The notes under the pieces were generated by a model, which worked only from the letters and a program-made list of their open reading frames with translations, ran no database searches and was not told the DNA's origin. A DNA stretch of 64,000 nt, taken from the NCBI GenBank assembly GCA_038233215.1, contig JBBSML010000007.1, forward strand, positions 21,002-85,001, given 5' to 3'. This DNA is from Candidatus Limnocylindria bacterium. GTDB taxonomy: Bacteria; Chloroflexota; Limnocylindria; QHBO01. Every line of letters starts with the position of its first letter. The stretch's first letter is position 1. Shown here piece by piece: positions 4,522 to 33,191 of the stretch. The position numbers and the translations under genes were made by a program.

Positions 4522-6882
4522 TCACAGGAGAGACTCGGGGTCCACGTCGATCGCGATTCCCGGCGGCACGCGCTCCAATGCCGCGGCACGCGTCTCGGCG
4601 TCGGGCGCACGGATCACGACCTGCATCCGGAAGCGCCCAGCGCGCCGCACGACGTAGGATGGCAACGGGCCAAGCACCTCCGCCCCGGGGACGGCAACGG
4701 CAGCAGCCGCCTGGCGCCCGCGCTCTTCGGCTCGGGCGCGGTCGGCGTCGGCCACGAGCAGACGGGCCAGCACGCTGAACGGCGGGTAGCCCAGGAGGCG
4801 GCGACGGAGGAGCTCCTCGTCCGCGAAGCCCTCGACGTCCAGAGCAGCCGCCGCCTTCACCGCGTAGTGCCCTGGCGCATAAGTCTGGATGATGACGCGG
4901 CCCGCCATCGGGCCCCTGCCCGCACGTCCCGCCACCTGCGCCAGCAGTTGGAACGTGCGCTCGGCCCCCCGGTAGTCGGGCAGGTTGAGCGTGACGTCGG
5001 CCGCGATCACGGCGGCGAGAATAACCGAGGGCAGGTCCAAACCCTTGGCGGCCAGCTGGGTGCCGACCAGCACGTCGGTTCGTCCTTCCCTGAAGTCGTC
5101 ATAGATCGTCTCGAAGCCGCGCCGCGCGCTGAGCGCATCGGAATCGAGTCGGCCGATTCGCAGGCCGGGGTAGCGCGCGCGGAGCTCGGCTTCCACGCGC
5201 TGCGTGCCCGCGCCGAAATACCGGATCCGTGCGCTGCCGCAAGCCGGGCATGTCCCGGTCGGCGCGCTGGACCTCCCGCAGTGGTGACAGCGCAGGGTCC
5301 CACCCTCCAGGTGGTAGACGAATGGCAGCTCGCAGTCGGGACAGCGCAGGCTCTCGCCGCAGTCGCGACAGAGGATGAAGGTGGCGGCACCTCGCCGGTT
5401 CAGCAGCAGGACGGCCTGTTCGCTCCCCCGGCGAAGCGCTCCGAGCGCGTCGGCCAGGGCCGTTGAGAAGATTGACCGATTGCCGCCGGCGAGCTCGGCG
5501 CGAAGGTCCGCGACCTCGATGGCAGGCGTCGAACCCACGCGTCGCTCGACCAGGTGCGCGTGTTCGGCGTGGCCTCCCCGCACGCGCGCCAGGCTGACGA
5601 GGTCGGGAGTGGCACTGCCCAGCACGATGCGGGCTCCGGCGATCGACGCCCTCCGGCGCGCCACCCAGCGCGCGTCGTAGCGGGGCGTGCGGTCGGACTT
5701 GTAGCCACCGTCATGCTCCTCGTCGACGATGATCAGCCCCAGGCGCGCAAGCGGCGCAAAGGTGGCCGTGCGTGTCCCGATCACGACGCGAACCTCGCCA
5801 CGCAGGATGCGCCACCACTCGTCGTGCCGCTCCCCGGCCGAGAGCCCGGAGTGCAGCACTCCGAGCTCCGCGCCGACGAGTGCCCGGAGACGGTCCGCAA
5901 TCTGCGGGACCAGGCTCACCTCCGGAACCGTGATGATGATGTTCAGCCCGGCCCGAAGCGTTGCCACCGTCGCCGCCAGATACACATCGGTCTTGCCGGA
6001 CGCTGCCACGCCCTGGAGCAGCAGCTCGCCACCCGATGTCAATGCGCTGACCGCGTCAAGCGCGGCGACCTGCTCCCGGGACAGCCGGTGACGGAGGTCG
6101 GGTATCTCGACTCGGTGCGCGAGCGGACTGCGTTCGACGTTGCGCCAGTCGAGCTCCGCCCGGCCCAGAGCCACCAGGCGACGGGCCGGAGCGAGGAGGG
6201 CGGCCGCATCCGTCTCGAGCTCGGCCGCAAGCTCCACCATCGTCCGCTCTCCAGCCTCGAGGGCGTCGAGCAACGCGCGCTGCACGGGCGCTCGACGCGC
6301 CGGCTCCGTCCCGCCCGGCACCGGTCGGAGCACGCGCACGCGGCGGGGGTTCACGTCGGCGGCGCGGAGCGACCACTCCGATCGAAGGGCGCCGACGCGA
6401 CGCAGGCGCTCGAGCCAGGTGGCGCGACCCCGGCGGGGAGCGAAGCGCATGAGCGTGGCATCGGACAATCGCCCGTCGGCGTCGGTTGCCTCCGGAACGC
6501 CCGTCGGGACCGCGGAAACGTCGAGGACCTCCCATCGCCGCGCGAGCCGAGACTCGAGGCCGGGCGGCAGCATGGCCGCAAGCGTCGTCCCGATGGGAGC
6601 GCGGTAGTACGCGGCGATCTCCTCGGCCAGCGTGAGCAGGTCCGAGGTCAGCATCGGCGGCGAGACCACGGCCTCGATCGGCTTCAGATCGTCATCTGCA
6701 GGGGCGTCGGCCTCGCCGGCGAGGACGTATCCGAGCGCCAGGCGGCGACCGTACGGAACCAGCAGCAACGATCCCGGGGCCGGCATCTTCAGCTCGACCG
6801 GAACAAGGTAGCTGAACGTGCGCTCGGGCCGATCGGCGAGCGCATCGACCGCCACGCGCACGGCACGTCTGCCCGGCGTCAT
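4522..6882 (-). CDS. priA: Primosomal protein N' (PriA helicase)
   Basis: Walker A GVAASGKT, DEEHD box, CxxC...CxxC zinc-binding cysteines and a helicase C domain. Confidence 0.85.
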   Translation of the reverse strand: MTPGRRAVRVAVDALADRPERTFSYLVPVELKMPAPGSLLLVPYGRRLALGYVLAGEADAPADDDLKPIEAVVSPPMLTSDLLTLAEEIAAYYRAPIGTTLAAMLPPGLESRLARRWEVLDVSAVPTGVPEATDADGRLSDATLMRFAPRRGRATWLERLRRVGALRSEWSLRAADVNPRRVRVLRPVPGGTEPARRAPVQRALLDALEAGERTMVELAAELETDAAALLAPARRLVALGRAELDWRNVERSPLAHRVEIPDLRHRLSREQVAALDAVSALTSGGELLLQGVAASGKTDVYLAATVATLRAGLNIIITVPEVSLVPQIADRLRALVGAELGVLHSGLSAGERHDEWWRILRGEVRVVIGTRTATFAPLARLGLIIVDEEHDGGYKSDRTPRYDARWVARRRASIAGARIVLGSATPDLVSLARVRGGHAEHAHLVERRVGSTPAIEVADLRAELAGGNRSIFSTALADALGALRRGSEQAVLLLNRRGAATFILCRDCGESLRCPDCELPFVYHLEGGTLRCHHCGRSSAPTGTCPACGSARIRYFGAGTQRVEAELRARYPGLRIGRLDSDALSARRGFETIYDDFREGRTDVLVGTQLAAKGLDLPSVILAAVIAADVTLNLPDYRGAERTFQLLAQVAGRAGRGPMAGRVIIQTYAPGHYAVKAAAALDVEGFADEELLRRRLLGYPPFSVLARLLVADADRARAEERGRQAAAAVAVPGAEVLGPLPSYVVRRAGRFRMQVVIRAPDAETRAAALERVPPGIAIDVDPESLL

Positions 6883-7531: not shown

Positions 7532-8502
7532 TCCTCGACGGCGGCTCCCACGCCCTCCGGCACCTGGCCGCCGGCGACCGTCAGCCCGGATAGTTCAAGG
7601 CACGACGCGAGGTCGGCCGGCAGGGCGCTCCAGGCGCGGAGACGTCGTCCGTCGAGCGGGCGCTCGAGCCCTAGCCGCGCGGCGTGCAGGAATTGGCGGC
7701 TGAGTCGCCCCGGCCCCTCGCCGCCGCCGTACCGCAGATCACCCGCGATGGGGAGGCCCAGATAGGTCAGGTGGGCGCGAATCTGATGCGTTCGACCGGT
7801 GAGCGGACGCAGGACGAGCAGGGTGTAGCCGGCCGCCGTCGCGATCACCTCGTACTCGGTGGTGGCTTCGCGGCCACCGGCCACCACCGCCATGCGCTGT
7901 CGATCACGTCGATCACGACCGATCGGTGCCTCCACCCGGCCGCGGGGCGACGGCGCCTCGCCACGGACGAGCGCCAGGTATTCCTTCTCGATGCTTCGAT
8001 CACCGAACTGTCGCATGAGGCTGGCCTGGGCAAGGTCGTTCTTGGCGACCACGATCAGTCCGCTCGTCTCCTTGTCAAGCCGATGCACGATGCCGGGCCG
8101 ACCGACCCCCGCGACCGACCCGAGCGCTTCGCCACGGTCACGCGCCCGCCCGAGGAGTGCGTTGACCAGCGTGCCGCTGCTGTGGCCCGCAGACGGATGG
8201 ACGACAAGGCCCGCCGGCTTGTCGACGATGAGCATCGTCTCGTCCTCGTAGGCAACGCTGAGTGGAATGGACTCCGGGGAGAGCGTCTCGTCGGGCGGCG
8301 CGCTCAGCTCGACACTCACCCGCTCACCGCCGAGCAGCCGATCACTCGAGCGTCGCCGTCCCCCGTCGACCAGCGCCCGTCCATCGCCGAGGAGGCGCTG
8401 GGCGTGCGCGCGGCTGATGCCTCCGACCGCCGCGACGGCGAGATCCACTCGTCCAGCCGGCGCGGGCCCCTCGACGGTCCGGACCTCCACCTGGCCGCTC
8501 AT
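7528..8502 (-). CDS. rluD: RluA-family pseudouridine synthase (RluD-like, with S4 domain)
   Basis: HRLDKETSGLIVVAKN catalytic motif. The ORF-track N-terminus is an overextension; likely start MSGQVEV at 8502, overlapping the lspA stop. Confidence 0.8.
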   Translation of the reverse strand: MSGQVEVRTVEGPAPAGRVDLAVAAVGGISRAHAQRLLGDGRALVDGGRRRSSDRLLGGERVSVELSAPPDETLSPESIPLSVAYEDETMLIVDKPAGLVVHPSAGHSSGTLVNALLGRARDRGEALGSVAGVGRPGIVHRLDKETSGLIVVAKNDLAQASLMRQFGDRSIEKEYLALVRGEAPSPRGRVEAPIGRDRRDRQRMAVVAGGREATTEYEVIATAAGYTLLVLRPLTGRTHQIRAHLTYLGLPIAGDLRYGGGEGPGRLSRQFLHAARLGLERPLDGRRLRAWSALPADLASCLELSGLTVAGGQVPEGVGAAVEE

Positions 8503-20572: not shown

Positions 20573-20656
20573 TGGTGCCGGAGGAGGGACTCGAACCCCC
20601 ACGCCTTGCGGCCGCCGGGTTTAAGCCGGCTGCGTCTGCCATTCCGCCACTCCGGC
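20573..20656 (-). tRNA. tRNA-Leu (anticodon UAA)
   Basis: Cloverleaf read manually: GCCGGAG..anticodon loop CTTAAAC..long variable arm..GGGTTCGAGTCCC..ACCA. Confidence 0.85.
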
Positions 20657-20836: not shown

Positions 20837-20882
20837 TGTGGAGGCGACGACGGGAATCGAACCCGTGTACGCGGTTTTGCAG
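20837..20882. repeat. attL: 46-bp copy of the 3' end of tRNA-Cys (left boundary of the island)
   Basis: tgtggaggcgacgacgggaatcgaacccgtgtacgcggttttgcag is identical to 32794..32839. Confidence 0.85.
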
Positions 20883-21292
20883 TACTCACGATAGCGTCCG
20901 CCGGCGTTCGCCGGGGCCTCCCCCGCGCTCGAGTGTGGCTCATCGGGGTGGTGCGATCACCTTGGGCATTCGCCCCCGTTGCTACCGGCTTTGCTACCCG
21001 AATCGGCCGACGTCACTCCGCTCCATGCCTTGATGGCCTGCTGCGAAATCTGTCGCGATCACAGGAACTGACCGCAGATTTCGGCCAGGCGATCCCAGGC
21101 AACACAGGGATGGTATTCGGTCCGCTCGCCATTTCCGCCGCGGTACTCGTTGGTCGCGACCGAAAAGGTCGTCAATGGCTCAGTTACACCAAACGGTCGG
21201 CTTACCGAAAGATCATCGAGGTAAGCGGCTTTCAGCCGCGTCGCCGACGTTGCCCTGCCTACCCCGCGGCTGCTCGCGGGTGCTGGTGAGTC

Positions 21293-21583
21293 TCAGTAGA
21301 CCTTGCTTTCGACGACATCGACGATACGGGCTCGAGGGGTCCCGCCCAACAACGGCGTTGCCTGCGGCGACCGCCACAGCTCTTCGAGCCCCAGCTTGAA
21401 TGCCTCTGCCTCAACCCGATTGTCGAACTCCAGGTCCACGGCGATATAGTTCGGATCATCGACCGGTCGGTAGACCTGATACCGCCGCACCCGCCCGACC
21501 TCGCGACGTTCCTGGCCGCCGTCGAATACCGCCTTCCAGGTCTCGAAGTCGCGGACGGGATGTTCGATCTGCAAAACGGGCAC
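21293..21583 (-). CDS. Small conserved alpha+beta protein (ABM/Dabb-like ferredoxin-fold guess), divergent from the TetR gene
   Basis: 96-aa ORF MPVLQIEHPVRDFETWKAVFD...; the fold assignment is a guess. Confidence 0.4.
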   Translation of the reverse strand: MPVLQIEHPVRDFETWKAVFDGGQERREVGRVRRYQVYRPVDDPNYIAVDLEFDNRVEAEAFKLGLEELWRSPQATPLLGGTPRARIVDVVESKVY

Positions 21584-21622
21584 GGGTGACTCCTCTCGAC
21601 CGGGCGGATCGCCCGGTTCGAC

Positions 21623-21656
21623 TACAGTACGACTTTATCAATATGGTGATACTGTA
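21623..21656. promoter_or_regulatory. AT-rich divergent promoter with an inverted repeat TACAGTA-N20-TACTGTA; -10-like TACTGT sits 7 nt before the TetR ATG, suggesting a leaderless transcript
   Basis: Read directly: cagtacgactttatcaatatggtgatactgtactcacATG. Confidence 0.4.
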
Positions 21657-21661
21657 CTCAC

Positions 21662-22327
21662 ATGGCAGAACCTGTCAAGCCCTCCCGCACCCACGACTTC
21701 CCGCGTCGCCGCGCGCGGGCGCGGGCGACACGGACGCGTGTCCTCGATGCCGCCCGGGCGCTGTTCACTGAGCGGGGCTATGTCGCGACAACGATCGACG
21801 TGATCGCCGCGCGCGCGGATGTCTCGCCCGAAACGGTGTACTCCACCTTCAGAACCAAACGCTCTCTCCTCTCCGAGCTCGTCGATGTCTCCATCGCCGG
21901 CGGCAACGACGCGCCGCCGATCTTCGAGCAACCGTGGGTGCAGGAGATGCGCGAGGAACCGGATCCCCATCGCCGGCTGCAGATCCTGGCCAGCAATGGG
22001 CGGTCGATCCTCGAGCGACGGGCGGCCGTCGACGAGGTGGTACGCGGCGCTGCCGCGGCCGATCCCGAGATCGCCACGCTTTGGGAGCGCGGCAAGGCCC
22101 AGCGCTTCGCAGGTCAGCGCGAAGGGCTGCGGATCGTCATGGGCGCGGCGGGCCCGCGGGAGGGGATGGACCTCGAGACGGCCAGCGACATCCTATACGC
22201 CATCGGCAGCCCCGAGACCTACCGGCTCCTCGTCGTCGATCGCGGCTGGAGCGGCTCCCGCTTCGAGCGCTGGTTCGGCGAGACGCTCGAGCGCCTGCTC
22301 CTCGACCCGGTCAGCCCGCGCCCCTGA
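21662..22327 (+). CDS. TetR/AcrR-family transcriptional regulator
   Basis: N-terminal HTH RTRVLDAARALFTERGYVATTIDVIAARADVSPETVYSTFRTKRSL. Confidence 0.8.
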   Translation: MAEPVKPSRTHDFPRRRARARATRTRVLDAARALFTERGYVATTIDVIAARADVSPETVYSTFRTKRSLLSELVDVSIAGGNDAPPIFEQPWVQEMREEPDPHRRLQILASNGRSILERRAAVDEVVRGAAAADPEIATLWERGKAQRFAGQREGLRIVMGAAGPREGMDLETASDILYAIGSPETYRLLVVDRGWSGSRFERWFGETLERLLLDPVSPRP

Positions 22328-23060
22328 GGCAGACGCTTCTCCGAAGGGGGCCGGATCAAGCAGTCGGCAGGTCAAGGAATCTCAACGGGTACAATCCTGC
22401 TCATGCGACAGGCGTAGCCTGCCCGATCCACAGCACGTTAGGCTGAGTACGCACGATGAGCTCATCTGCCTCACGACGCCCGTCGATGACCAAAGACAGG
22501 CGGAACACGCCGGAGCCCTCGCCACCAGCACGCAGCTCCTCGAACTCCCTGGCATAGTCGGCGCGAGCCGCATCCGCAGTTATGCACCATCGCTGGCTGA
22601 CTCCATCGAAATGGGGTACTCGAACCTCGGCCCTATAGCGGCCATCGGCGCCCTATCACCCTTTTGACCGAGCAATCGCGGCCCTGGTCACAGCCAACTA
22701 TGCCCACCAAGAGATGGCTATCGATGTGTCCGGAGCTATCGAGGTTGCGGTCCTCGACGATGACGAGCAGCGCTTGAAGGTCTCTCATCATCCGGACGGG
22801 TTCCTTCAGTTCTCGGGTAATGAGATCCGGTCTGGGCGCGAGGCGACGGGTGCCCCTAACGGGATCGGCATCGTCTCATGGCCGCTGCATCAGCCGACGT
22901 TGGGTCCATCTCGCGTCACCACCCTATAAGTTGGCGCCGCCCTAAATCACGGCCCGCACCGAAAGGCGACCTCCGCGGGCACCTCCGATTCGTGCTCACG
23001 ACCATCCTCTCCGTGCCGCGCCAAAAGGAGGTCTTTGCGGACCGCCTGAACGATCACTCG

Positions 23061-25595
23061 TCAGTCGTATGGACGCGAGTCCTCCGACTCGTAGAGAGCG
23101 GTAACCTTTGCCCCCTGGAATGCGAGAACCGCCGTCCGCGCCGCGGCATCAGCGAGATCCAGTACGCGAAGTGTTCCGTCCTCCACCCTGGCCACCGACT
23201 CAACACGAACGAACCGATCGCTGTACCGCTCGGCGAACATCGCGAGCGCATGGAGCTTGGCTCGCGCGTCTGCGAGATAGTCGCCATGTGGATCGACGAT
23301 CGATGCCCCGAGCGTCCCATCTGAACGCCGGGACACAATGATGAAGTCGGGCTGTAGGGACGCCCACTGCCCATCGTCGTGGTGGTACGCGATCCGCAGC
23401 GACGCCGGCGTTGCGCTTCCCGGATTGCGGTACCACGCGACGAACCCGGGCCGGGCTAGCTCCGCCTGAACGACTCGCCGCTCCCACTCGTTGAGCTCCG
23501 CGGGAAACATCCCGCCGTCGTCCGCGTATAAGTGCCCCGAGTACCTGGGCAAATCTTCGCCGTGCCGGTCCTTCGTGGCGGCCCGTTCGTTTGCCCGCAG
23601 TTCGACTGTCACCTCCTCGGGGGACGTCGTTTGCTCGCGTACCCGCGTGTAGGCAGCGCGCGTAGCGCCTGTCGTAAGCAGGATCTCCACCCGGACCCGG
23701 TTGAGCTGTTCCTGGACCCACGCAGTCGTTGTCTCGTCGATGGCCCCGACGACGCTCTCCACGCGCAGGAGCGCGGCGACCTGGACACGGACCTGATCCC
23801 GGTTTGCGCCCGGCCCGGCAGCCGCCAGCCGATGCGCGAACCATGCCTTTCCGACGCCCTCGCGCACAGCATTGATCATCCGCTGGCTGTCCCGCGCCAC
23901 ATCGCGTGCGTGGGTCGCAATCCTCCGAACCTCGGGCTCTGCGCCGGTTTCCTCGCCGACCGTCGTGATGCGTGATCGCCGAACCTCGGCCGCGAGCATG
24001 TCCTCGATGTTCGCGTCCACGGCTGCCCTGTGCTCCGCGGCGAGGCCATCGAGCCGCGAGTTCAGGCGCGACGTCAGTTCAGCTACGGCGTTCGCCAGCA
24101 GTGGCGCTCCGCTCGCATCGTCGGCGAGAAGCCGGGCGAGCGTCCTGGCCCGTCTCAGCGGGCTGGCGCTGCGGTCGGGCGTCGGGATGCTGGGCAGCGC
24201 GCCGATGAAGTCGAAGACTTCGCGGCCCAGGTGCGGATTGCGATCGAAGACCTGCGGCGCCCGCACAACCGCCGCCGCCACCCGGAGCTGGCCGTTGTCC
24301 GGCCCGGTACCCTCGAGCGCGTCCTTGATGGCCGTCAGCGCCTTCCGATCGAACAGCGGCAGGTAGCAGGTGACCGAGTTCAGGGCGTCATCGGTCGCGA
24401 TGCGGTGCGCCAGCGGCTGGCGAACCATCCGGCCGATGATCTGGGCGATGTGCGTCGCATCCTTCGCGGGCCGCTCCGAGTAGAGCACCTCTGCGCGCGG
24501 GCAGTCCCATCCGGTGGAGATCGCTTCCTTGGCCAGCACGACGCGGACATCGGTATCGGTCTGGATCGACTCGGGGAACACCCACTCGACTGTCCGCGAG
24601 CCCAGCGTCATCGTCTGATGCTCGCCGAGGACGTGCGCGATCGCCTGCGGCCCGAGCTCGGGCCACTCCTCCTCGATGGTCGAGACCAGCTCGGTGAGCT
24701 TGGCATCGCTCGCCTTGTCCGGCACCTGGACAACGAGCACGGGGAGCACCTCGGGCTCGCCCTCGGCGGCCGAGTACGCGGCCCAGCGCTCCTCAAACGT
24801 CCTCGTTGCCTTGACCGCCTCCCGCAGCAACGTCGTCGAGAACGTGCCCTTCTCGTCGGGCTGGTCGAGGCCGATCTCGTCCTTGACCAGGCCCGAAGCA
24901 CGCACGCGCCCGATGTCGACCGCGACGTTCGGACGGGTGATGCGGTTGGTGACCTCACCCATCGCGCGGGTGAATCGGTCAATAGTGGCGGAGATGCCCC
25001 ACACGATGGGCATCGGCGGGTTGGAGCCTGGCTGACCGCTGATGAGCCGATGCACGATCGTCTGCCGATCCGCCGCGCGCTTCATGCCGCGGTGCGCCTC
25101 GTCGAGGACCATGACGAGTCCCGTCTGGCGTCCCCGGATCGTGTTGCGCAGGATGTCCCAGAACGAGAACTCCCTGGTATTCGTGCCGCCCTGTGCGAGG
25201 CGGCTCGACTTCGACAGCTTCTGGGTGTTGAGGAAATAGACGTGGCGTGACGCCAGGTCGGCATCCGGGAACGACTCATCGATGTCGCGCAGCTGCCAGT
25301 TGTTGAGTAACTCGGACGCATCGAGCATGCGAGCCTTGGTCTGCCGGTTGAGTGCGGGGTCATCGGTGATCCACAGGAAGCTCACACCCGGATCGGGCTC
25401 GGTGTCGAGGTCGGTCGAGCCGAAGAAGAGCGCCTCGATGACTGCCGTCGCGATGACCGTCTTGCCGGAGCCGGTGATAGCGGACAGCGCGAAGGAGGAG
25501 AGGTCTCCATGGGCCACGTCCCGGCGTGATCGCTGGAGGCGCTTGATGACCTCGATGGCGGCGTCGCGCTGATAGTCGCGCAGCTCGTAACGCAT
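23061..25595 (-). CDS. res: Type III restriction enzyme Res subunit (SF2 helicase plus endonuclease)
   Basis: Walker A ITGSGKT, VMVLDEAHRG (DEAH box), helicase C motifs; directly downstream of and abutting mod. Confidence 0.75.
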   Translation of the reverse strand: MRYELRDYQRDAAIEVIKRLQRSRRDVAHGDLSSFALSAITGSGKTVIATAVIEALFFGSTDLDTEPDPGVSFLWITDDPALNRQTKARMLDASELLNNWQLRDIDESFPDADLASRHVYFLNTQKLSKSSRLAQGGTNTREFSFWDILRNTIRGRQTGLVMVLDEAHRGMKRAADRQTIVHRLISGQPGSNPPMPIVWGISATIDRFTRAMGEVTNRITRPNVAVDIGRVRASGLVKDEIGLDQPDEKGTFSTTLLREAVKATRTFEERWAAYSAAEGEPEVLPVLVVQVPDKASDAKLTELVSTIEEEWPELGPQAIAHVLGEHQTMTLGSRTVEWVFPESIQTDTDVRVVLAKEAISTGWDCPRAEVLYSERPAKDATHIAQIIGRMVRQPLAHRIATDDALNSVTCYLPLFDRKALTAIKDALEGTGPDNGQLRVAAAVVRAPQVFDRNPHLGREVFDFIGALPSIPTPDRSASPLRRARTLARLLADDASGAPLLANAVAELTSRLNSRLDGLAAEHRAAVDANIEDMLAAEVRRSRITTVGEETGAEPEVRRIATHARDVARDSQRMINAVREGVGKAWFAHRLAAAGPGANRDQVRVQVAALLRVESVVGAIDETTTAWVQEQLNRVRVEILLTTGATRAAYTRVREQTTSPEEVTVELRANERAATKDRHGEDLPRYSGHLYADDGGMFPAELNEWERRVVQAELARPGFVAWYRNPGSATPASLRIAYHHDDGQWASLQPDFIIVSRRSDGTLGASIVDPHGDYLADARAKLHALAMFAERYSDRFVRVESVARVEDGTLRVLDLADAAARTAVLAFQGAKVTALYESEDSRPYD

Positions 25596-27710
25596 CTAAT
25601 CGCGCCCGCGCTCGGGCAGGAACATCGACAGGTAGGAATCGGGCAGGCGGACGGTGTCCATGCCGTTGGGCAGCTCAGCGGCGATGCCGGCGAACGTGGT
25701 CGGCGAGTGCGTCACGATGAACGCGGTGGTCGCCGTCTCCGGGCGTGCCGAGACGAAGCTGCGCCATCGGTCCTCGTCGAAGAGGATGCCGTACCGATCC
25801 GTCCAAGCGTACGGGAGCGGGGCGCCGGCCTCGTCCGTGCGCGGTGCGATCGGCCCGGAGGCGCCGGCGCGCAGCCAGAGCAGCGGCGCGATGGCGTCGT
25901 AGGCCAGTCCGAGGTCGACGTCGTCCGCGTCGAGGTAGCGGAGCTCCAGGAAAGCGGCGTTCTCCTCGAGACCGTCGGCAATCGGGAACTCATCGGTGAA
26001 CTTGTAATCGCCCTTGTTCGGTTCGCCATCCGGCGTTTGGCCGGTGATCGCCGCCGTCACGCGCGGCCGCGTGATGTGCTCGAAGATGCCGAGCGCCTCC
26101 CACTCCGGATCGCCGGGCCGGAGGCCCTGGGCGCGCAGACCCTTCGCCTCGTCGACGGACACCTCGTTATTGGTGACCATGATCGATTGTCGCCGACCGC
26201 CGTCCTGCCGATTTAGCCGCATGACGGCATGAGCCGTAGTTGCCGAGCCCGCGAAAAAGTCCAGCACAACGGCGTCGGGCTTGCTCTTCACGAAGAAGCG
26301 GACCGTGTCTTCGACGGCATATAGAGACTTGGGAAACGGAAATCGACGGTCCTTGAGCAACGCGCGCAAGAGCGAGGTGCCGTACTGGCCGGCGTCGTGA
26401 CCTGGAAACCTCCATGCAGTGGTAGCCCGCGTGACCTTTCCTTGCATCGCCACCACGACCTTCGATCCATCAGGTCGCTCGCCAGCGATGGCCCATTCTC
26501 CTGCCTTGATCCTCCGTAGTGCGCTGGCGCTGAGGTAGGTGAAGATGAACGGCTGATGAGCGTGGCCGGCACTAACGCGAACAAACCCAGCATCGTTAAG
26601 ACGCAACAGGCTAGGCCCTGTCAATCCCCAGTTCATGTGCAGTCCATCCTCGCGAATGGGAAACACGGGTACGGCGTCACGCCTAGCCGGGACACTCTCG
26701 ACGGGGTCCGTAGGTCCCAGCGGATCGCCGACACCCACGATGCGTTGTGTCTCGGGTGAGACGAAGATCGGATAGAACTGCCTCGGCCGAGTGCGCCGCA
26801 CAGACGAGAGGTCAGTACGACGCAAGTACCACCACCTCACCTCGCGTTCGTGGCCATCGCCAGTGGGGTGAACTACGTGTGCGCCGCCGAGGATGGCGAA
26901 GAAGATGTACTCATCGGATCGGGAAAACAAGTCCTCCCGCTTCGCGCCCGACGGGTTGATCACGCTGCTGACCATCTGCAGCCGGGCATTGGCGAATGTC
27001 TGTTCCAACAGCAGTCCCAGACGGAGGTACTCCCGCTCGTCGATCGTGACGATGAGGACCGAGTCGTCGGGATTCAGGAGCTCCTTGGCGAGCTTGAGGC
27101 GCCGCTCCATAAATGCGAGCCACTTGCTATGGCGGTAGGCATCGCTGTCGTCGACGTAGTCGTTGTTGTACTTCCAGTCGCGCGCGCCGCTGTTGTAGGG
27201 CGGGTCGATGTAGATGCAGTCGACCTTGCCGGCGTGGGTAAAGCGCAGTGCCTCGAGCGCGTGGTGGTTCTCGCCATTGATGACGACGTGGTACGGCTTG
27301 TCGCCGCCGCGCTCGACCGTGCCGACGGAGCGAAATCCGGGCAGCACCGGCTCGCCGAAGTCGGTGATGACGACTAGCGAATCGAGCGGCATGCGTTCGC
27401 GCTCGCCGACTGCGTGCTCGCCCCGGGCGACGTAGGCGCCATCCGGATCGCGAACCAGTCCCACGGTCGCGAGGGGATCCTCGACAGCGAGGACCTCGTA
27501 GGTCGGACTGTCGGGGTCATCTCGGCTGACGACTTGGGAGCCGGTGCGGATCGCATGCTGAGGCAACCGCACCCGCTCGGGGATGTGCTGCTCGAACACC
27601 AGCCCGAAGCTGCGGCGCTGCTTGAGCCGATCGGTCTGGCTTCGAAGGTCCTCCCGCAGGGCCGGATCCTCGACCCGCTCGAGGAGGACGTCCAGCTCGC
27701 TTCGAATCAT
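25596..27710 (-). CDS. mod: Type III R-M Mod subunit (N6-adenine DNA methyltransferase)
   Basis: CIYIDPPYN (motif IV DPPY), DFFAGSATTAHAV (motif I, FxGxG). Confidence 0.8.
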   Translation of the reverse strand: MIRSELDVLLERVEDPALREDLRSQTDRLKQRRSFGLVFEQHIPERVRLPQHAIRTGSQVVSRDDPDSPTYEVLAVEDPLATVGLVRDPDGAYVARGEHAVGERERMPLDSLVVITDFGEPVLPGFRSVGTVERGGDKPYHVVINGENHHALEALRFTHAGKVDCIYIDPPYNSGARDWKYNNDYVDDSDAYRHSKWLAFMERRLKLAKELLNPDDSVLIVTIDEREYLRLGLLLEQTFANARLQMVSSVINPSGAKREDLFSRSDEYIFFAILGGAHVVHPTGDGHEREVRWWYLRRTDLSSVRRTRPRQFYPIFVSPETQRIVGVGDPLGPTDPVESVPARRDAVPVFPIREDGLHMNWGLTGPSLLRLNDAGFVRVSAGHAHQPFIFTYLSASALRRIKAGEWAIAGERPDGSKVVVAMQGKVTRATTAWRFPGHDAGQYGTSLLRALLKDRRFPFPKSLYAVEDTVRFFVKSKPDAVVLDFFAGSATTAHAVMRLNRQDGGRRQSIMVTNNEVSVDEAKGLRAQGLRPGDPEWEALGIFEHITRPRVTAAITGQTPDGEPNKGDYKFTDEFPIADGLEENAAFLELRYLDADDVDLGLAYDAIAPLLWLRAGASGPIAPRTDEAGAPLPYAWTDRYGILFDEDRWRSFVSARPETATTAFIVTHSPTTFAGIAAELPNGMDTVRLPDSYLSMFLPERGRD

Positions 27711-27839
27711 GCGCTAAGCCTACCCGCAGGCGCGGCGACGTTCCCACATTCCCGCGCAGCCGAAAGGACCTCGTTTCGGGCAGCCCGCGCTACGTTGAGA
27801 ATCAGCCACGAATGCTTCACTGATGTGAGGCTCCCTTTT

Positions 27840-27873
27840 CGGAGCGCCCAGCGACTTCGGAGCGCCCAGCGAC
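27840..27873. repeat. Tandem 16-bp repeat cggagcgcccagcgac x2 (18-bp period), ~130 bp upstream of the mod start
   Basis: Direct reading. Confidence 0.9.
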
Positions 27874-28006
27874 ACCCTGGGTAGCGCTTCGAGCATCACC
27901 TGGCCGTATGCTTTACCGCGGCGAGATGGCTCAGAGACCCACTAGACCGGCGCCCCTAGCTCAACAAACAACGCGTTACCAGGCAACCAACTCGCGGGCG
28001 GCCGGC

Positions 28007-28179
28007 CCCCGAAGCGTTCCCCGTAGCGTTCCCCGTATCAAGTGTTCGAACGTACCCTGACGATACGAAGCTGCAGGGAACGGAGCTTCGGGCTTCGGAG
28101 CGTGAGGGCGCTTGATCCCCGAAGCGTTCCCCGTAGCTCCCGTATCAAGTGTTCGAACGTACCCTGACGATACGAAGCT
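28007..28179. repeat. Two ~66-bp direct repeats (28007..28072 and 28117..28179), each containing the GTTCGAAC palindrome and a GTATC...GATAC inverted repeat
   Basis: Copy 1 and copy 2 are nearly identical apart from a cgttc indel. Confidence 0.85.
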
Positions 28180-28228
28180 CGACTACCGTGTACGCCAGTT
28201 ATAGCGTCGACTCAGGAGGTACTCACGG

Positions 28229-28399
28229 ATGCCCCTGTCCGCTGAACAAATGCAGACAATGATGGCCGAGATCGACTGCGGAGTGACCCGCGAGGAGTCC
28301 CGGCTGGCACCCCTCGACGCCGCTGAAGCGGGGTTCTGGGAACGGGCCGTGGTCGAGATCCGGGCCATCAAAGAGCAAGGCTATCCCGCCGGCGACTGA
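28229..28399 (+). CDS. Unannotated 56-aa ORF with a strong SD (AGGAGG-N8-ATG): MPLSAEQMQTMMAEIDCGVTREESRLAPLDAAEAGFWERAVVEIRAIKEQGYPAGD
   Basis: Canonical SD, ATG start and high GC3; located immediately after the 66-bp repeat pair. Absent from the ORF track only because it is under 60 aa. Confidence 0.5.
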   Translation: MPLSAEQMQTMMAEIDCGVTREESRLAPLDAAEAGFWERAVVEIRAIKEQGYPAGD

Positions 28400-28445
28400 T
28401 GGGCGGCCAGCCGGCACCCAGCCGCCGGAGGACGATGACCGATCA

Positions 28446-29045
28446 CTACTGACCGATCGACCGCTTCAGTCTTCCAAGGGTGGCCGTTCCGATGCCAAGG
28501 CGGCGAGCGGCTTCGCGCTGAGAGAGCTTGCCGGCGGCCAGCTCCGCACGCACCGTCTCCCAGCGACGTGCGAAGCCGTGGCGTGAGGAGACGGGCGGCC
28601 TCCCGATGCGGGCGCCGTTGCGTGCAGCTTTCCTCATTCCCTCTCGCACGCGATCCGCGATCAGCTCCCGCTCCATCTCGGCCACGGCCGCGAGGATCGT
28701 GAAGACCAACCGCCCCGTGGCGCTGGTCGTGTCGAGCTCGGGCTGAGTCAGTGACGCGAATCCGACCCCGGAATGCTCGAGGTCGCGCAAGGTGGCGAGA
28801 GCGTGCAAGGTGGAACGGTAGGCACGGTCGAGCTTCCAGACCAGGACACGGTCGACGCGTCGTCTAGCTGCGTCTGCCAACAGGCGGGCCCACGCGGTCC
28901 GGTGGCTCAAGTCGCCGGCCGCAGCCGCGTCAACGTATTCAGTGGCGATCCAGCCGCGCGCCGAAACGTACTCCCGCATGGCCACGAGCTGGAGCTCTGG
29001 GTCTTGGTCTTTGTCGCGCGTGCTGACACGCGCGTACAGGGCCAC
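28446..29045 (-). CDS. Serine recombinase (resolvase/invertase family)
   Basis: VALYARVSTRDK catalytic-serine motif near the N-terminus (probable GTG start at 29045); C-terminal HTH. Confidence 0.75.
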   Translation of the reverse strand: MALYARVSTRDKDQDPELQLVAMREYVSARGWIATEYVDAAAAGDLSHRTAWARLLADAARRRVDRVLVWKLDRAYRSTLHALATLRDLEHSGVGFASLTQPELDTTSATGRLVFTILAAVAEMERELIADRVREGMRKAARNGARIGRPPVSSRHGFARRWETVRAELAAGKLSQREAARRLGIGTATLGRLKRSIGQ

Positions 29046-29131
29046 ACGGATGCCCGCATCCCGCCGACGTCCGTCTGACTCTGCGAACTGACCGGCCCCT
29101 CTTGGAGGGGCACCGACGACGACTCGATCGG

Positions 29132-30409
29132 TCATACCGTCGGCTCCCACGGCGGCCACAGGACGACTTGCGTGGTGTCGAGCCTTCCACCTACGCCATC
29201 CAGCAACGTCGGATTGACCGCACCGCCCGCGGTGACCGCACTCTCGGTTGGTAGATGAGTTTCAACCGCTACACCGCTACGCTCGAGCTTCGCTTCACGC
29301 TCCGAGGCAGCGGAGTAGCGGTTGGGATCGCCTATGGGTGGCGGCAAGTAGCGACTGAACGCGTCGGTGAACTGCTCGAGGTCATAGCCACGGACGTTCT
29401 CTCCACCGATCCTCAGTTGACGGGCGCGAATCCCGAACGGGCTGAGCAGCCGGCCCATGCCGGTTGGCCTCAGTCCTCGACCGTTGTTCCACTCCTGCCA
29501 AGGATGAACCTCGAACTCATCCGCCAGCAGAACATCCAGCAGGTCCCTCAATGCCAGCCGCTCGATGCGACGTTCCGCGAAGATCGTACGGATGTCGCCA
29601 AGCAGTAGGACGGCGACCTTTTCCTCCTCGAGCTCGAGCACCCCGGAGAGCCGTAGGGCAGCGCGGCGCCCGCGCGACGGCCACTCTGCCCCCGCCGCAT
29701 CGGCCAGGGCCAGCAACGGTTCCCAGCTGTCTGCTGCTCGATCAGGCAGCTCTTCTGGTACGTCGGCCTCCTCGGGCAGCCGCAGCTCAGATGCGAGGAC
29801 CTCCCACGCGTCTCTTATGGGCGACGCGTCGCGCTCAGCTGTGCGATACCGGAAGCGTTCGACAGGCTCATGTCGAGCGCGGCGCTTCAGGGCGACGACG
29901 ATAGATCGGTCCTGGACCGTATCGGGTAGCCGTCCGATGCTGGCGATTGCTTTCGGGCAATACACCTCGAACGACTCGAGGCGCATCTTCTTACCCTCAC
30001 TCACGACTCGCCAGAACGGGACACCGCGTCGGTAGCCGTTGTTGAGCAGGCCGCGTATGTCCTCCCCGCCATCGGGGTTCCGCCTTCCAAAGATTGTGTC
30101 TGCTTCGTCCAAGAGCAATGTCGGGTGCCGCTCGTCGATGATGCGAAAGAGGGCCGCGAGGCTCGCACCCGCCATTGGCACGGGCTCGCGAGTGAGCAGG
30201 CGCAGGCACTCGAGTAGCCGTGTCTTCCCAGAACCCTTCTCCGGGCTCTGGATGGCCAAGTACGGCGTCGTGTCGAATTGGTCGTACAGCCAGGAATGAC
30301 CCACCCACAGAGCGACCGCATGGGCTAGTTCTGCGCTGCCAAGGACGACAAAACGGCTCAGAAAGACAGCCGTGCAGTCCAGCAGGTCAGACGTCGCGCT
30401 AGGGCTCAT
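29132..30409 (-). CDS. DUF3631-like P-loop NTPase (replication/mobilization-associated protein of actinobacterial integrative elements)
   Basis: Walker A SPEKGSGKT, LLDEAD Walker B; the family call is from memory. Confidence 0.5.
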   Translation of the reverse strand: MSPSATSDLLDCTAVFLSRFVVLGSAELAHAVALWVGHSWLYDQFDTTPYLAIQSPEKGSGKTRLLECLRLLTREPVPMAGASLAALFRIIDERHPTLLLDEADTIFGRRNPDGGEDIRGLLNNGYRRGVPFWRVVSEGKKMRLESFEVYCPKAIASIGRLPDTVQDRSIVVALKRRARHEPVERFRYRTAERDASPIRDAWEVLASELRLPEEADVPEELPDRAADSWEPLLALADAAGAEWPSRGRRAALRLSGVLELEEEKVAVLLLGDIRTIFAERRIERLALRDLLDVLLADEFEVHPWQEWNNGRGLRPTGMGRLLSPFGIRARQLRIGGENVRGYDLEQFTDAFSRYLPPPIGDPNRYSAASEREAKLERSGVAVETHLPTESAVTAGGAVNPTLLDGVGGRLDTTQVVLWPPWEPTV

Positions 30410-30678
30410 GACGCACCCCGCTTGTCGATGTATCGGCCTATCGCGGAGGCAGGGACTAATCGCCTTCGCCCCACTTTGACCGACCACAACTCGCCGCTGA
30501 GCAGCTCGGCGTAGAGGGCAGTCCGCCCGATGCCGAGTGCCTTCGCGGCTTCGTCGATGCTCAGCAGTCGATCGGGCGAGTCTCGCACCGTGTCCAGCTC
30601 GGCTCGAATCGCGAGGATCAACGCTTGCACAAGGTCGTCGACGGCAACCTGGACGGCCGTCTCATGTTCGCCAGTCAT
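30406..30678 (-). CDS. xis: Excisionase/AlpA-like helix-turn-helix DNA-binding protein
   Basis: LLSIDEAAKALGIGRTALYAELLSGELWSVKVGRRRLV matches the Xis/MerR-type HTH_17 pattern; start inferred at MTGEHE. Confidence 0.55.
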   Translation of the reverse strand: MTGEHETAVQVAVDDLVQALILAIRAELDTVRDSPDRLLSIDEAAKALGIGRTALYAELLSGELWSVKVGRRRLVPASAIGRYIDKRGAS

Positions 30679-30907
30679 TGCCCGCCTCGGCTTCGCCACC
30701 GTCTCGGCGCTGCCGCAACGCAATGCCGCTCCAAGCCCTCCAAGATGAGAACGAGTGCCTGCTCCTTCGCGCCGCGCAACTCGAGCTGGGCCAGTTCCCG
30801 GAGCCGTTCGAAGTCCTGAGTCGGTATCGCGAGATAAATCGTCCTCATGCACAGATGGTCGCGATCTGAGCCTGCTCAGGACAAGGTGTTCAGGTGTTCA
30901 AGTTGCT

Positions 30908-31504
30908 CTAGTGGCCTGCCAGACGCCGTCTAACGGTCGAGACGCTCACGGCTAGAGCACGGGCAACCGCTTGGTAGCCATGAGGCTTGCCCGCGGCGCG
31001 CAGCGCCGCCTGGCAGATCTCGACCTCATCACGATCAACGATCGGCTTTGGTCCGTCCCTCCGGCGCGCCGGGGCGGAGGCGGCGAGTACCTCAGCTGGA
31101 AGCGTGCGCCGGGGCGGCATTGGATGAGTAAGGTCGATCTCCGCGAGGATCTCCCGCGCTTCCATCCTTTGAGCACTACCCACCGTGGGCCATATCCGAC
31201 GGATTAGGCGCTCCCATTGGTCGTCCGAGAGATCCGGCCGTTCGCCCCGAGCCGCACGCAATGCTCTCACCGTGGCAAGAGCGATGCCCGCTAGGGATGG
31301 CGCGCGGGCGGCATGGAGACCAGGTAAGCCCGGTGGAGATCCCAGCGGCGCCGACTGCGCGCAGTCGAGCTCGAGCTGAGTCAAGTCCCTGAATTCACGC
31401 CACACCGCGACGTAGATGAAGCCTCCCGGCGTGGTTGCATCCGATGCCGTCCAGCCCGGCGGGAGCCCGGGTTCATTTAGATCGCCAGGTGACCGTTCGC
31501 TCAA
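30908..31504 (-). CDS. Hypothetical protein with a C-terminal HTH; island-encoded, translationally coupled to the integrase (ATGA overlap)
   Basis: 198-aa ORF ending ...GYQAVARALAVSVSTVRRRLAGH. Confidence 0.5.
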   Translation of the reverse strand: MSERSPGDLNEPGLPPGWTASDATTPGGFIYVAVWREFRDLTQLELDCAQSAPLGSPPGLPGLHAARAPSLAGIALATVRALRAARGERPDLSDDQWERLIRRIWPTVGSAQRMEAREILAEIDLTHPMPPRRTLPAEVLAASAPARRRDGPKPIVDRDEVEICQAALRAAGKPHGYQAVARALAVSVSTVRRRLAGH

Positions 31505-32709
31505 TTGGGTGACTCTTCGCGAGACACCAACGCCCGATTCATCGCAGCAGCAGCTTCGAGGCGCAGCTCCGGGACCACCGCCGCGTAGTGCGACGCCGTG
31601 ATGGCGATGCCAGCGTGGCCGAGAAGCTCGGAGATGACAGCGAGCGGCACGCCCTCCGCGAGAAGCAACGTGGCGGCAGAGTGGCGCAGGTCATGGAGAC
31701 GGATGGGGGGCAAGGCAAGTCGATCACGTGCGCGAGTGAATGCGTGAGACACCATGCCGGGACTGAGGGGTCGGCCCACGGAGTCGGTGAACACGAGTCC
31801 CAGGCGATCCTGCCAAGCGGCTCCGGCGGCGGCCCGGGCAGCACTCTGATTCGTTCGCTGCCGCTCGAGGGCATCCCGACCGGCTGTCGAGAGCGGGATC
31901 GTCCGCCGCGATTTCATAGTCTTCGGATCCGCCATGGTCCAGCGAGAGTCCCCCGCCTCCGCTAGGGAGCGGCGAACGGTCACGGCAACGTCCGTGACGT
32001 CGGACCAAGCCAGCCCCAGCAACTCGCCGCGGCGCAAGCCAGTGGTTACAGCAAGCGTCCACAGCGGGCCAAGCGGATCCTCGAAAGTCCCGTCGATAAG
32101 GCGGCGGACGTCCGACGCCGAGAGATAGGACACAGGCCTATGCGGAACATAGGGCGGAGCCGCATCGGCCGCGGCGTTGCGAGTCACAAGCCCGCTCCGG
32201 ACGGCTGCATTCAGCGCCTTGCGGAGAGTCGCCCGAATGTGGCGGACTGTGAGTGGCGAGACTGGACGCCGCCTGGGCGCCGCAGATATCGAGGCGCCTG
32301 TAGCGAGAAAGGAGTCTAGAGCGCGCTCCACGTCCCCCGACGAGACGCGCTCTACCTGCAGTCGGCCGAGCGCCGGAATCAGATAGCGCCGGACATGCAT
32401 CTCGCGACTCCGCCACGTAGATGGTCGCACTCTCTGTCGGTCACGCTCGATCCAATCGGCAAGATAGTCGGCTAGCGAACCGGACCCCGACGGCGCCAGT
32501 GCGCCGACGCGGAGCTTGACTCGCAGCTCGTCCAACTTGGAACGCGCCTCGGCCGAAGTTCGCCCGGAGACCGTCCGCCGCCCGCGAGAGCCGTCAGCCT
32601 CGGTCCAGGTAACAGCCCCCCGCCAGCGTCCATCTGCGGTCTGATACACGCTGCCCTCGCCTGGCGAGCGTCGTCGGCGCGAGCTTGGAGCGCGAGTGCT
32701 GATGTTCAC
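31501..32709 (-). CDS. int: Tyrosine site-specific integrase (phage integrase family)
   Basis: C-terminal catalytic motifs HDLRHSAATLL...LGHAGIAITASHYA (R..HxxR..Y); adjacent to tRNA-Cys. Confidence 0.85.
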   Translation of the reverse strand: MNISTRAPSSRRRRSPGEGSVYQTADGRWRGAVTWTEADGSRGRRTVSGRTSAEARSKLDELRVKLRVGALAPSGSGSLADYLADWIERDRQRVRPSTWRSREMHVRRYLIPALGRLQVERVSSGDVERALDSFLATGASISAAPRRRPVSPLTVRHIRATLRKALNAAVRSGLVTRNAAADAAPPYVPHRPVSYLSASDVRRLIDGTFEDPLGPLWTLAVTTGLRRGELLGLAWSDVTDVAVTVRRSLAEAGDSRWTMADPKTMKSRRTIPLSTAGRDALERQRTNQSAARAAAGAAWQDRLGLVFTDSVGRPLSPGMVSHAFTRARDRLALPPIRLHDLRHSAATLLLAEGVPLAVISELLGHAGIAITASHYAAVVPELRLEAAAAMNRALVSREESPN

Positions 32710-32795
32710 GTTCGCGATTGTACGCGCATTGCTACCGGCGTTGCTACCGACACTGCGAAACCTGAACCCGCGGCCTCGTTACCGTGCTTGGATTG

Positions 32796-32870
32796 TGGAG
32801 GCGACGACGGGAATCGAACCCGTGTACGCGGTTTTGCAGACCGCTCCCTAAACCACTCGGGCACGTCGCC
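32796..32870 (-). tRNA. tRNA-Cys (GCA); its 3' 44 nt form attR
   Basis: GGCGACG..anticodon loop CTGCAAA..GGGTTCGATTCCCGTCGTCGCCTCCA. Confidence 0.85.
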
Positions 32871-32882
32871 ACGCGCTCATTC

Positions 32883-32956
32883 TGGCTGCCCCGCGAGGAT
32901 TCGAACCTCGGTTCACGGATCCAAAGTCCGCTGTCCTACCGCTAGACGACGGGGCA
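32883..32956 (-). tRNA. tRNA-Gln (UUG)
   Basis: UGCCCCG...anticodon loop CTTTGGA...GAGGTTCGAATCCTCGCGGGGCAGCCA. Confidence 0.75.
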
Positions 32957-33010
32957 ACGCCTCGTCACGCTAGCAGGTCGACAGCGACGGTACCTAGCCG
33001 GACGTGAAAA

Positions 33011-33085
33011 TGGAGCGGAAGACGGGATTCGAACCCGCGACCCTCACCTTGGCAAGGTGATGCTCTACCACTGAGCCACTTCCGC
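33011..33085 (-). tRNA. tRNA-Gly (GCC)
   Basis: GCGGAAGTGGCTCAGTGGTAGAGC..anticodon loop TTGCCAA..GGGTTCGAATCCCGTCTTCCGCTCCA. Confidence 0.85.
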
Positions 33086-33115
33086 CCGCTTGTTGGCCCG
33101 ATGATACCGCGTTGC

Positions 33116-33191
33116 TGGTGCCGAGGGTCAGAATCGAACTGACGACACCCGCCTCTTCAGGGCGGTGCTCTACCGACTGAGCTACCTCGGC
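33116..33191 (-). tRNA. tRNA-Phe (GAA)
   Basis: GCCGAGGTAGCTCAGTCGGTAGAGC..anticodon loop CTGAAGA..GTTCGATTCTGACCCTCGGCACCA. Confidence 0.85.

Follow-up and report, generated by a model that had tools for sequence, protein, structure and literature searches.

The 64-kb stretch of DNA analyzed here (the window) is part of the chromosome of a soil bacterium, a Limnocylindria-class member of the Chloroflexota, and contains a 12-kb island beside a tRNA-Cys gene. The intact tRNA-Cys(GCA) gene, the attB target, lies at 32796-32870 on the minus strand and was identified with ARAGORN and Rfam. Coordinates refer to the window, island genes are on the minus strand unless marked otherwise, and the minus strand is called the element strand. 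A repeat finder run over the window detected a direct repeat, identical at 46 of 46 positions, at 20837-20882 and 32794-32839; the copies bracket 11,957 bp. The repeat comprises tRNA-Cys positions 32 to 75, from the first base of the anticodon loop to the encoded CCA, plus 2 nt. These are the only two copies in the window even when three mismatches are allowed, shuffled sequences gave an expectation of zero, and chance duplication of a tRNA fragment was rejected as an explanation. The preliminary description of this DNA, made from the sequence alone, had reported the exact 46-bp att duplication in tRNA-Cys with accurate coordinates and wording, and had held that copies at unrelated loci would speak against it; the window contains no further copy. 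From the tRNA inward, the backbone of the island consists of int, orf198, a gene for an excisionase-family helix-turn-helix (HTH) protein, the gene for a RepAM-type DUF3631 protein, and a resolvase gene. We conclude, with a probability of roughly 85%, that the 11,957-bp block at 20883-32839 is a site-specific integrative element driven by its tyrosine integrase, that is, a genuine mobile genomic island that its own integrase placed in tRNA-Cys and that has restriction-modification (R-M) defense aboard. All checks that were run favored the interpretation given in the preliminary description.

If the island is an insertion, its removal should leave the junction GCGTAGATGG + 46-bp core + ACCGCTCC at attB. 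Joint Genome Institute (JGI) metagenomes were scanned with a query in which the 46-bp core was joined to 10 nt of the left flank on one side and to 8 nt from the 5' side of the tRNA on the other. The junction was matched in one contig (L084; Ga0183260_10092116, 2,202 bp) that is ∼93% identical to the host. L084 aligns with window positions 32916-32783 at 97% identity and then directly with 20882-20789, 20791-20573, and 20352-18631 at 91 to 94%. Its gene order is tRNA-Gln, tRNA-Cys, the left flank of the window, and tRNA-Leu(UAA), with 260 bp between tRNA-Cys and tRNA-Leu(UAA) and nothing between the two repeat positions. Because L084 runs from tRNA-Cys directly into the left flank, this close relative lacks the 11,957 bp, and the gap coincides exactly with the repeat borders. 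The distal copy (20837-20882, minus strand; 44 nt of the tRNA plus 2 nt), which is continuous with the host flank, is thus the displaced original 3' part of the host gene, and the functional tRNA-Cys is completed by the island-supplied 3' part in the proximal copy (32794-32839, minus strand). By sequence comparison, this shows that the island is an insertion whose site is empty in a close relative and whose borders are exactly the two 46-bp copies, and it answers the call in the preliminary description for an empty tRNA-Cys site. Unoccupied tRNA-Cys genes were also found in three metagenome-assembled genomes (MAGs; L031, L032, and L063). Two other contigs, L001 and L091, belong to the same island and are broken at the att repeat and at a 41-bp tandem repeat; they are uninformative on the empty site. 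L084 also contains ∼70 bp (172-242) between the flank of the att core and tRNA-Leu(UAA) that have no counterpart in the window.

The tyrosine integrase gene adjoins the intact tRNA, as the preliminary description had noted (31501-32709, minus strand; PF00589, E = 4e-22; phrog_1, 1.5e-67 over residues 4 to 377). A start at GTG 32709 gives a protein of 402 aa, and gene callers place the start at GTG 32649, giving 382 aa. The longer form is more likely because a conserved N-terminal RRRSxGEGS motif lies upstream of 32649 in frame; searches and residue numbering use the 382-aa form. Catalytic residues R206, K243, H319, R322, H345, and Y355 are invariant or nearly so among 25 homologues. An AlphaFold2 (AF2) model (mean predicted local distance difference test [pLDDT] score, 76.5) contains an N-terminal beta-beta-beta-alpha unit with strands at residues 2 to 3, 9 to 16, and 22 to 29 and a helix at residues 32 to 45, modeled with a pLDDT of ∼70 to 83. 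The best Foldseek matches in the PDB were Tn1549 Int and full-length lambda Int (∼370 to 380 alignment columns), and sequence identity to solved integrases is ∼19 to 20%. A Pfam search with the N-terminal 80 aa alone returned no arm-binding family. The protein is an intact integrase with all catalytic residues present and a predicted three-domain layout.

Relatives of this integrase numbered 1,678 at E ≤ 1e-10, all from metagenomes or MAGs named Chloroflexota or Candidatus Limnocylindrales. A genome scan with the integrase yielded 80 loci, and the closest 42 were examined for an upstream tRNA. The 3' end of a tRNA gene on the same strand was found ∼50 to 310 bp upstream of the integrase match in 32 of the 42, and most of the remaining loci are truncated or not long enough to reveal one. 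Nine of the 32 are at the orthologous tRNA-Cys, with the Phe-Gly-Gln-Cys tRNA cluster and syntenic LemA/M48 flanks and with different cargo, in line with the suggestion in the preliminary description that the site is a hotspot. In the remainder, the target is tRNA-Ile, -Ser, -Leu(CAA), -Pro, -Met, -Tyr, -Thr, or -Leu(UAA). Across the family, at least ten different tRNA genes are used, and the arm architecture stays the same. The DNA fetched contains seven other islands in full; they are 2.9 to 10.6 kb long and are bounded by 36- to 58-bp repeats of the 3' part of the tRNA. With the window included, the att repeat begins at tRNA position 32 in all six islands at tRNA-Cys or tRNA-Pro. From what is established for tRNA-targeting integrases, a start at this position suggests that strands are exchanged in the anticodon loop and that the anticodon stem provides the inverted core-type sites.

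The arms of the predicted attP contain a repeated motif. TTGCTACC occurs exactly four times in the window versus 0.45 expected, none of 100 shuffles reached four copies, and variants with one mismatch are as frequent as expected by chance. The four copies, all on the plus strand, are arranged as two doublets spaced at 12 nt, one inside each island end. The distal doublet, referred to as doublet A (TTGCTACCGGCTTTGCTACC on the plus strand and GGTAGCAAAGCCGGTAGCAAC on the element strand; 20979-20998, minus strand), lies 96 nt inside the core, and the proximal doublet A (TTGCTACCGGCGTTGCTACC and GGTAGCAACGCCGGTAGCAAT, respectively; 32729-32748, minus strand) lies 45 nt inside the core. In element orientation, the motif is GGTAGCAAC-N2-4-GGTAGCAAC, and the doublet unit can also be written GGTAGCAA.

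The same arrangement recurs in the related islands. Among the seven other complete islands, five have an integrase-side doublet 41 to 62 nt past the att identity block; in L032 it lies at +4, and in L046, which has a truncated integrase, it is absent. On the far arm, a doublet in the same orientation starts 114 to 118 nt before the distal core in five of the seven (six of eight with the window included) and 124 nt before it in L028; it is diverged in L046. Overall, six of the seven other islands, all except L046, have the doublet on both arms at conserved distances. A strict test for an exact tandem 7-mer repeat after the upstream tRNA was positive in 30 of 33 loci, 27 of them at the position of the arm doublet; the other six loci have a doublet with mismatches or another repeat that scored first. 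Reading of the sequences located a doublet after the upstream tRNA in all 33 loci, imperfect in L017, L024, L026, and L031. Where the motif differs, it does so on both arms: GGCAGCAAT and GGCAGCAT-GGCAGCAAT in L015, GTTAGCATC on both arms of L016, and GGGTGGTAAC and GGGTGGGAAC in L024. Integrases of islands with such variants have substitutions in their conserved N-terminal strands; for example, RWRGA is replaced by HRGA or HAGA in L012 and L016, and HRRV by RRRF, RRRL, or RRRY in the GGCAGCAA group. This link between the motif and the integrase N terminus is suggestive. The preliminary description had noted the doublets just inside both ends in the same orientation and had read them as arm sites; the window holds no copies elsewhere, and the conserved distances and concerted change in relatives agree with that reading, in which integrase binding is predicted.

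A second, 10-nt-spaced doublet (B), G(G/A/T)AC(G/A)-N5-GGAC(G/A), has a background of 0.011 per 100 nt. Six of the eight complete islands have an exact match that starts 26 to 27 nt ahead of the distal core, and L016 and L028 have variant forms there; 20 of 33 loci also have a B doublet just past the proximal A doublet. In the window, the distal B doublet (GAACG-N5-GGACG on the element strand; 20895-20909, minus strand) starts 27 nt before the core and is a candidate site for an accessory, Xis-like protein. The proximal B doublet (GTACAATCGCGAACG; 32709-32723, minus strand) contains a −10-like TACAAT just upstream of the int start and may be the int promoter, possibly of a leaderless mRNA, and/or a site for the HTH_17 protein or another accessory protein. 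A simple promoter and terminator scan around the int start called nothing, and no canonical promoter was found there. Many relatives (L003 to L005, L010, L011, L017, L023, and others) have a conserved GC-rich hairpin (GCGACGGCCCCCGG...CCGGAGGCCGTC) that lies ∼90 to 130 nt after the tRNA end and separates the arm doublet from the start of the integrase gene. The element in the window lacks it, and its int open reading frame (ORF) begins right after the TACAAT box, and its int may therefore be regulated in another way.

The other end of the interval is also an integration site in relatives. The host tRNA-Leu(UAA) gene (20573-20656, minus strand; ARAGORN and Rfam) lies 180 bp outside the distal end of the island, and in L031, L032, and L063 a sister integrase (44 to 50% identity) occupies tRNA-Leu(UAA) beside the unoccupied tRNA-Cys. 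Together with the occupants of tRNA-Cys, these sister integrases make the Cys-Leu(UAA) interval a double hotspot. Beyond tRNA-Cys, the host genes for tRNA-Gln, tRNA-Gly, and tRNA-Phe (32883-33191, minus strand; ARAGORN and Rfam) form a cluster that is conserved and syntenic in related MAGs. The sister clade has a GGTAGCA doublet 3 to 13 nt after the tRNA end (L031, 954-1100; L032, 9752-9900; L063, 9762-9900). The L032 doublet is 4 nt past the identity block versus 41 to 62 nt in other islands, and the attP geometry of the sister clade is therefore different. L087 (the same locus as L014; 10001-21212) has a homologous integrase at the orthologous tRNA-Cys that gives way within ∼2 kb to metabolic genes of ordinary appearance for an IF-2B-family isomerase, an aldolase, PNP, and an ABC transporter. 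No att repeat was found there within 11 kb, and the locus is either a very large island or a stranded integrase. Distant integrase relatives (29 to 39% identity; L036, L037, and L040 to L081) come from MAGs labeled Dormibacteria, Rubrobacteraceae, Bacillota, Thermoleophilia, and a Micrarchaeaceae archaeon, and L036 has a different doublet (two copies of TTGACACCTTA) after tRNA-Ser.

Behind the integrase, orf198 (30908-31504, minus strand) encodes a protein with a predicted all-helical fold and without a family match; its TTG start codon overlaps the int stop codon (TTGA), which couples the two genes in translation. Only four homologues were found among 5.8 billion proteins, and relatives have a small ORF of 173 to 198 aa at this position. 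The AF2 model of orf198 has a pLDDT of 68.5, and a Foldseek search of the PDB returned nothing below E = 3. The next gene (30406-30678, minus strand; 90 aa as called in L001) encodes an HTH_17/TIGR01764 excisionase-family protein, a candidate Xis or regulator; in 33 related loci, a homologue lies next to the integrase. ATGA overlaps join the HTH_17, DUF3631, and recombinase genes, with the HTH_17 stop codon overlapping the start of the DUF3631 gene and the stop codon of the latter overlapping the start of the recombinase gene.

The DUF3631 protein (29132-30409, minus strand; PF12307, E = 5.7e-41) had no match in a PDB sequence search. DUF3631 corresponds to RepAM, the replication initiator of integrative and conjugative elements from actinomycetes (AICEs) of the pMEA300 type, which binds identical 8-bp repeats in a hairpin within the 3' end of its own gene (PMC3218068, PMC2440964). 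The gene in the window has such a hairpin inside its 3' end (29263-29324, minus strand; ΔG = −23.9 kcal/mol, z = −4.8). The 8-mer ACCGCTAC/GTAGCGGT occurs only three times in the window, at 29265-29280 and 29315-29322, and all three copies are in the hairpin, which is a candidate RepAM binding site or origin. The DUF3631 gene of L015 has a hairpin of equivalent geometry with different 8-mers. Identification of this protein as RepAM, which the preliminary description did not mention, implies that the island is probably a replicon when excised. The small serine recombinase that follows (28446-29135, minus strand; Resolvase, 8e-38) is of the resolvase/invertase type with a C-terminal HTH, is 77 to 83% identical to homologues in islands L020, L023, and L025, and, judged by its type, probably resolves multimers of the excised replicon.

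Genes of related islands were taken from ORFs filtered by G+C content at third codon positions (GC3) and from precomputed gene calls. The replication slot of these islands is filled by RepSA (L085, the same locus as L007, also at tRNA-Cys), by Prim-Pol and AAA_25, or by AAA_25 alone. Their cargo includes methylases, HsdM, RHS toxins, IS elements, and PNKP.

A second occurrence of the island was found through its encoded orf198. The NCBI MAG contig L090 (GCA_030154725.1, JALYEJ010002107.1) extends from the host LemA, M48 peptidase, and ion-channel genes through the tRNA genes into the island. Identity to the window is 93.5% over 2,671 columns of host flank and 98.97% over 4,452 columns of island, where the differences are mostly one N-gap and one 8-bp indel. 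The repAM array has two tandem copies of GTAGCGGT in the window versus three in L090 (∼6560-6590). A nearly identical island beside more divergent flanks suggests recent transfer, and by these identities the contrast fits independent acquisition by hosts that are about species level apart.

The cargo listed in the preliminary description (type III R-M, TetR, DUF3631 protein, serine recombinase, and Xis-like protein) is all present. The type III DNA methyltransferase gene mod (25596-27710, minus strand; PADLOC MTase_III, E = 7.6e-198) and the restriction subunit gene res (23061-25595, minus strand; REase_III, E = 2.5e-11, with a ResIII helicase domain at the N terminus) are adjacent in one operon, with the res start codon directly after the mod stop codon. 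Farther from the tRNA, ∼730 bp without a convincing gene separate res from a gene for a TetR-family regulator (21662-22327, plus strand; PF00440, E = 2.6e-14). A 96-aa ORF without a family match (21293-21583, minus strand) is divergent from the TetR gene. A 56-aa ORF preceded by AGGAGG (28229-28399, plus strand) also has no family match. Between backbone and R-M cargo, a repeat-rich noncoding spacer (27838-28179) contains two copies of an 18-bp repeat (27838-27873) and a ∼107- to 110-bp tandem duplication (27996-28072 and 28106-28179) with a perfect 41-mer. L090 has at least four copies of the long spacer unit (7600-8230), and the repeat broke the Logan assembly (L001). The ∼107-bp tandem repeat was rejected as a conserved res-like site, as it is not conserved downstream of the homologous recombinases of L020, L023, and L025. 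GC profile and skew gave no compositional island signal, with GC at ∼0.65 throughout.

Several observations weigh against the interpretation of the island as a functional mobile element with the parts assigned above. Profile scans recognized no transfer, relaxase, type IV secretion system (T4SS), capsid, terminase, portal, or packaging gene among the island ORFs. The junction predicted for the excised circle, GTGCTTGGAT + 46-bp core + TACTCACGAT, was not found, and the attP pattern was absent from the viral contigs searched. The hairpin pattern of repAM is clear in only two of four related DUF3631 genes, and the extra 8-bp repeat of L090 frameshifts its repAM (382 aa versus 425 aa). Either repAM is under no absolute constraint there, as with slippage in a protein-binding array, or the frameshift is an assembly error. 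The L090 contig could itself be a chimeric metagenome assembly in which two strains were joined through the identical tRNA cluster. Finally, the A doublets are candidate arm sites whose binding by the integrase is predicted, and the proximal one overlaps a promoter-like region.

These points bear on four other explanations. The island may be a decayed, immobile remnant of a conjugative element (an AICE or another integrative and conjugative element [ICE]) that has lost its transfer genes and is inherited vertically, which we consider unlikely. No island ORF has an FtsK/SpoIIIE domain as found in Tra proteins, or encodes a relaxase or T4SS component; a free Streptomyces AICE with a 37%-identical DUF3631 protein has both TraA and TraB; and the L090 frameshift would fit decay. 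The perfect att copies and intact integrase do not, nor does an island that is ∼99% identical across hosts with 93.5%-identical flanks. Moreover, 127 ORFs from 24 related islands matched 59 Pfam families, and FtsK_SpoIIIE is outside the 25 commonest, so that the absence of Tra looks like a trait of the family rather than decay. Still less likely, the island is what remains of a prophage or is a phage satellite that depends on a helper phage for packaging, similar to the phage-inducible chromosomal islands (PICIs). The order int, regulator, xis, rep and the small size resemble those of satellites, the integrase matches phrog_1, and a Pseudomonas phage encodes a DUF3631 homologue. Against this, no capsid, terminase, portal, or packaging-redirection gene is recognizable, PHROGs gave no structural matches among the island proteins, and the integrase profile has no relatives in 2.9 million IMG/VR contigs. 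A database comparison, as called for in the preliminary description, gave no nucleotide match in 50,697 phage records, and the phage and plasmid matches were confined to the methylase gene. A prophage proper was rejected on the lack of virion structural and packaging genes and of matches in phage collections or IMG/VR. Helper-hijacking genes of satellites are often orphans, and a satellite or trans-mobilized lifestyle is possible.

The other two explanations concern single parts of the element. The TTGCTACC doublets would, with a low probability similar to that of a decayed remnant, be operators of a regulator or promoter elements rather than integrase arm-type sites. The proximal doublet is immediately upstream of the −10-like TACAAT and the int start, and the island encodes three potential regulators (TetR, an Xre-like HTH protein, and the HTH_17 protein). 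The distal doublet has no gene start nearby, yet six of eight islands have it starting 114 to 118 nt ahead of the core (L028 has it at 124 nt), it covaries with the proximal doublet, and it is present whatever the cargo or replication type; the integrase and HTH_17 protein are the only proteins found in most of these loci. A dual role of the doublet, as arm site and autoregulatory operator, is likely, rather than an exclusive one. Insertion of the block by the serine recombinase instead of the tyrosine integrase is very improbable, although the gene is present and 77 to 83% conserved in three related islands. Most related islands have no serine recombinase, and 46 bp of identity covering the 3' half of a tRNA is a signature of tyrosine integrases. 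At 229 aa, the enzyme is of the resolvase/invertase type and lacks the large C-terminal domain of serine integrases; a large serine integrase was rejected as an explanation.

For the integrative element driven by its tyrosine integrase, we propose the following cycle. Excision would be carried out by the integrase with the HTH_17 excisionase-family protein and would produce a circle with an attP of ∼230 bp in the order doublet A, 96 nt, 46-bp core, 45 nt, doublet A, int. Four integrase protomers would bind the four arm-type half-sites through their N-terminal beta-sheet domains while their central and catalytic domains engage the core at the anticodon stem-loop of tRNA-Cys. Strand exchange would occur in or close to the anticodon loop, where the identity block has its left edge, and the tRNA would stay functional because its 3' half is replaced by one from the island. 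Replication of the circle would depend on the RepAM initiator and the 8-bp-repeat hairpin in repAM, with multimers resolved by the small serine recombinase. The TetR module and the type III R-M system would be variable cargo that pays for carriage by phage defense or addiction. Since the island encodes no recognizable function for transfer between cells, we infer that it receives help in trans.

The closest known counterparts of the modules are those of AICEs. Both are elements of 10 to 20 kb with a tyrosine integrase that inserts into the 3' end of a tRNA gene with ∼45 to 60 bp of identity and leaves the tRNA functional (PMC2440964, PMC3218068). Both combine int, xis, and rep modules, here with a RepAM whose identical 8-bp repeats form a hairpin in the 3' end of its own gene, as in pMEA300, and the relatives of the island substitute RepSA or Prim-Pol, the other two AICE replication types. 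In contrast to AICEs, the island has no FtsK/SpoIIIE-type Tra, Nudix gene, or Kor/Pra regulators, and it carries a resolvase and R-M cargo. Its int adjoins att and is transcribed away from it (int, orf198, xis-like, rep), whereas AICEs have the order rep, xis, int with attP downstream of int (PMC2440964). The free 14.3-kb Streptomyces AICE with the 37%-identical DUF3631 protein (NZ_CP108973.1) has the order TraB, TraA, Prim-Pol, DUF3631, HTH, int. AICEs have been reported only in the Actinomycetales, whereas the host of the island belongs to the Chloroflexota. On three of the features tested (Tra, module order, and host), the island is not an AICE.

In its recombination module, the island resembles lambda, mycobacteriophage L5, and Tn916/Tn1549: a three-domain integrase whose N-terminal beta-sheet domain is here taken from a predicted model, an attP of ∼230 bp whose core has repeated arm motifs to either side, and an excisionase-family HTH protein. 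The L5 attP has paired arm sites, which the doublets of the island recall. The GGTAGCAAC motif with exactly one doublet per arm is specific to the family of the island, where it is known from sequence. As in tRNA-associated genomic and defense islands, an integrase beside a tRNA, direct repeats, and variable R-M, toxin, and methylase cargo are found at a hotspot; unlike generic islands, which often have neither, this one has its own replication module and resolvase, and its GC content does not deviate from that of the host. The island is thus a lambda/L5-style integrative element with AICE-type modules, a clean, textbook-type case of a kind that is well known.

A single literature search found no paper combining Limnocylindria and integrase, and this family of integrase elements in Limnocylindria appears to be undescribed. 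A broader proposal, to which we assign slightly less than even odds, is that the island in the window belongs to an undescribed family of AICE-like replicative integrative elements without a transfer gene, found outside the Actinobacteria in Limnocylindria. Its members would share a fixed integrase and attP design, with one arm doublet on each side of a tRNA-derived core and int pointing away from att, would exchange RepAM, RepSA, and Prim-Pol, and would have their defense and toxin cargo moved between species, for example by helper phages or functions supplied in trans.

The analysis is a solid annotation result that changes no current concept and introduces no new mechanism. It delimits a mobile element whose attP is mapped and which has candidate arm sites, a candidate origin, and defense cargo, in a host class of uncultured soil and freshwater Chloroflexota. 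The set of int, xis, and RepAM, RepSA, or Prim-Pol modules, held to be a trait of actinomycetes, is present in another phylum without the FtsK-like transfer protein. The integrase family is a natural series for change of core specificity under fixed arm recognition and a possible source of site-specific integration tools for high-GC bacteria.

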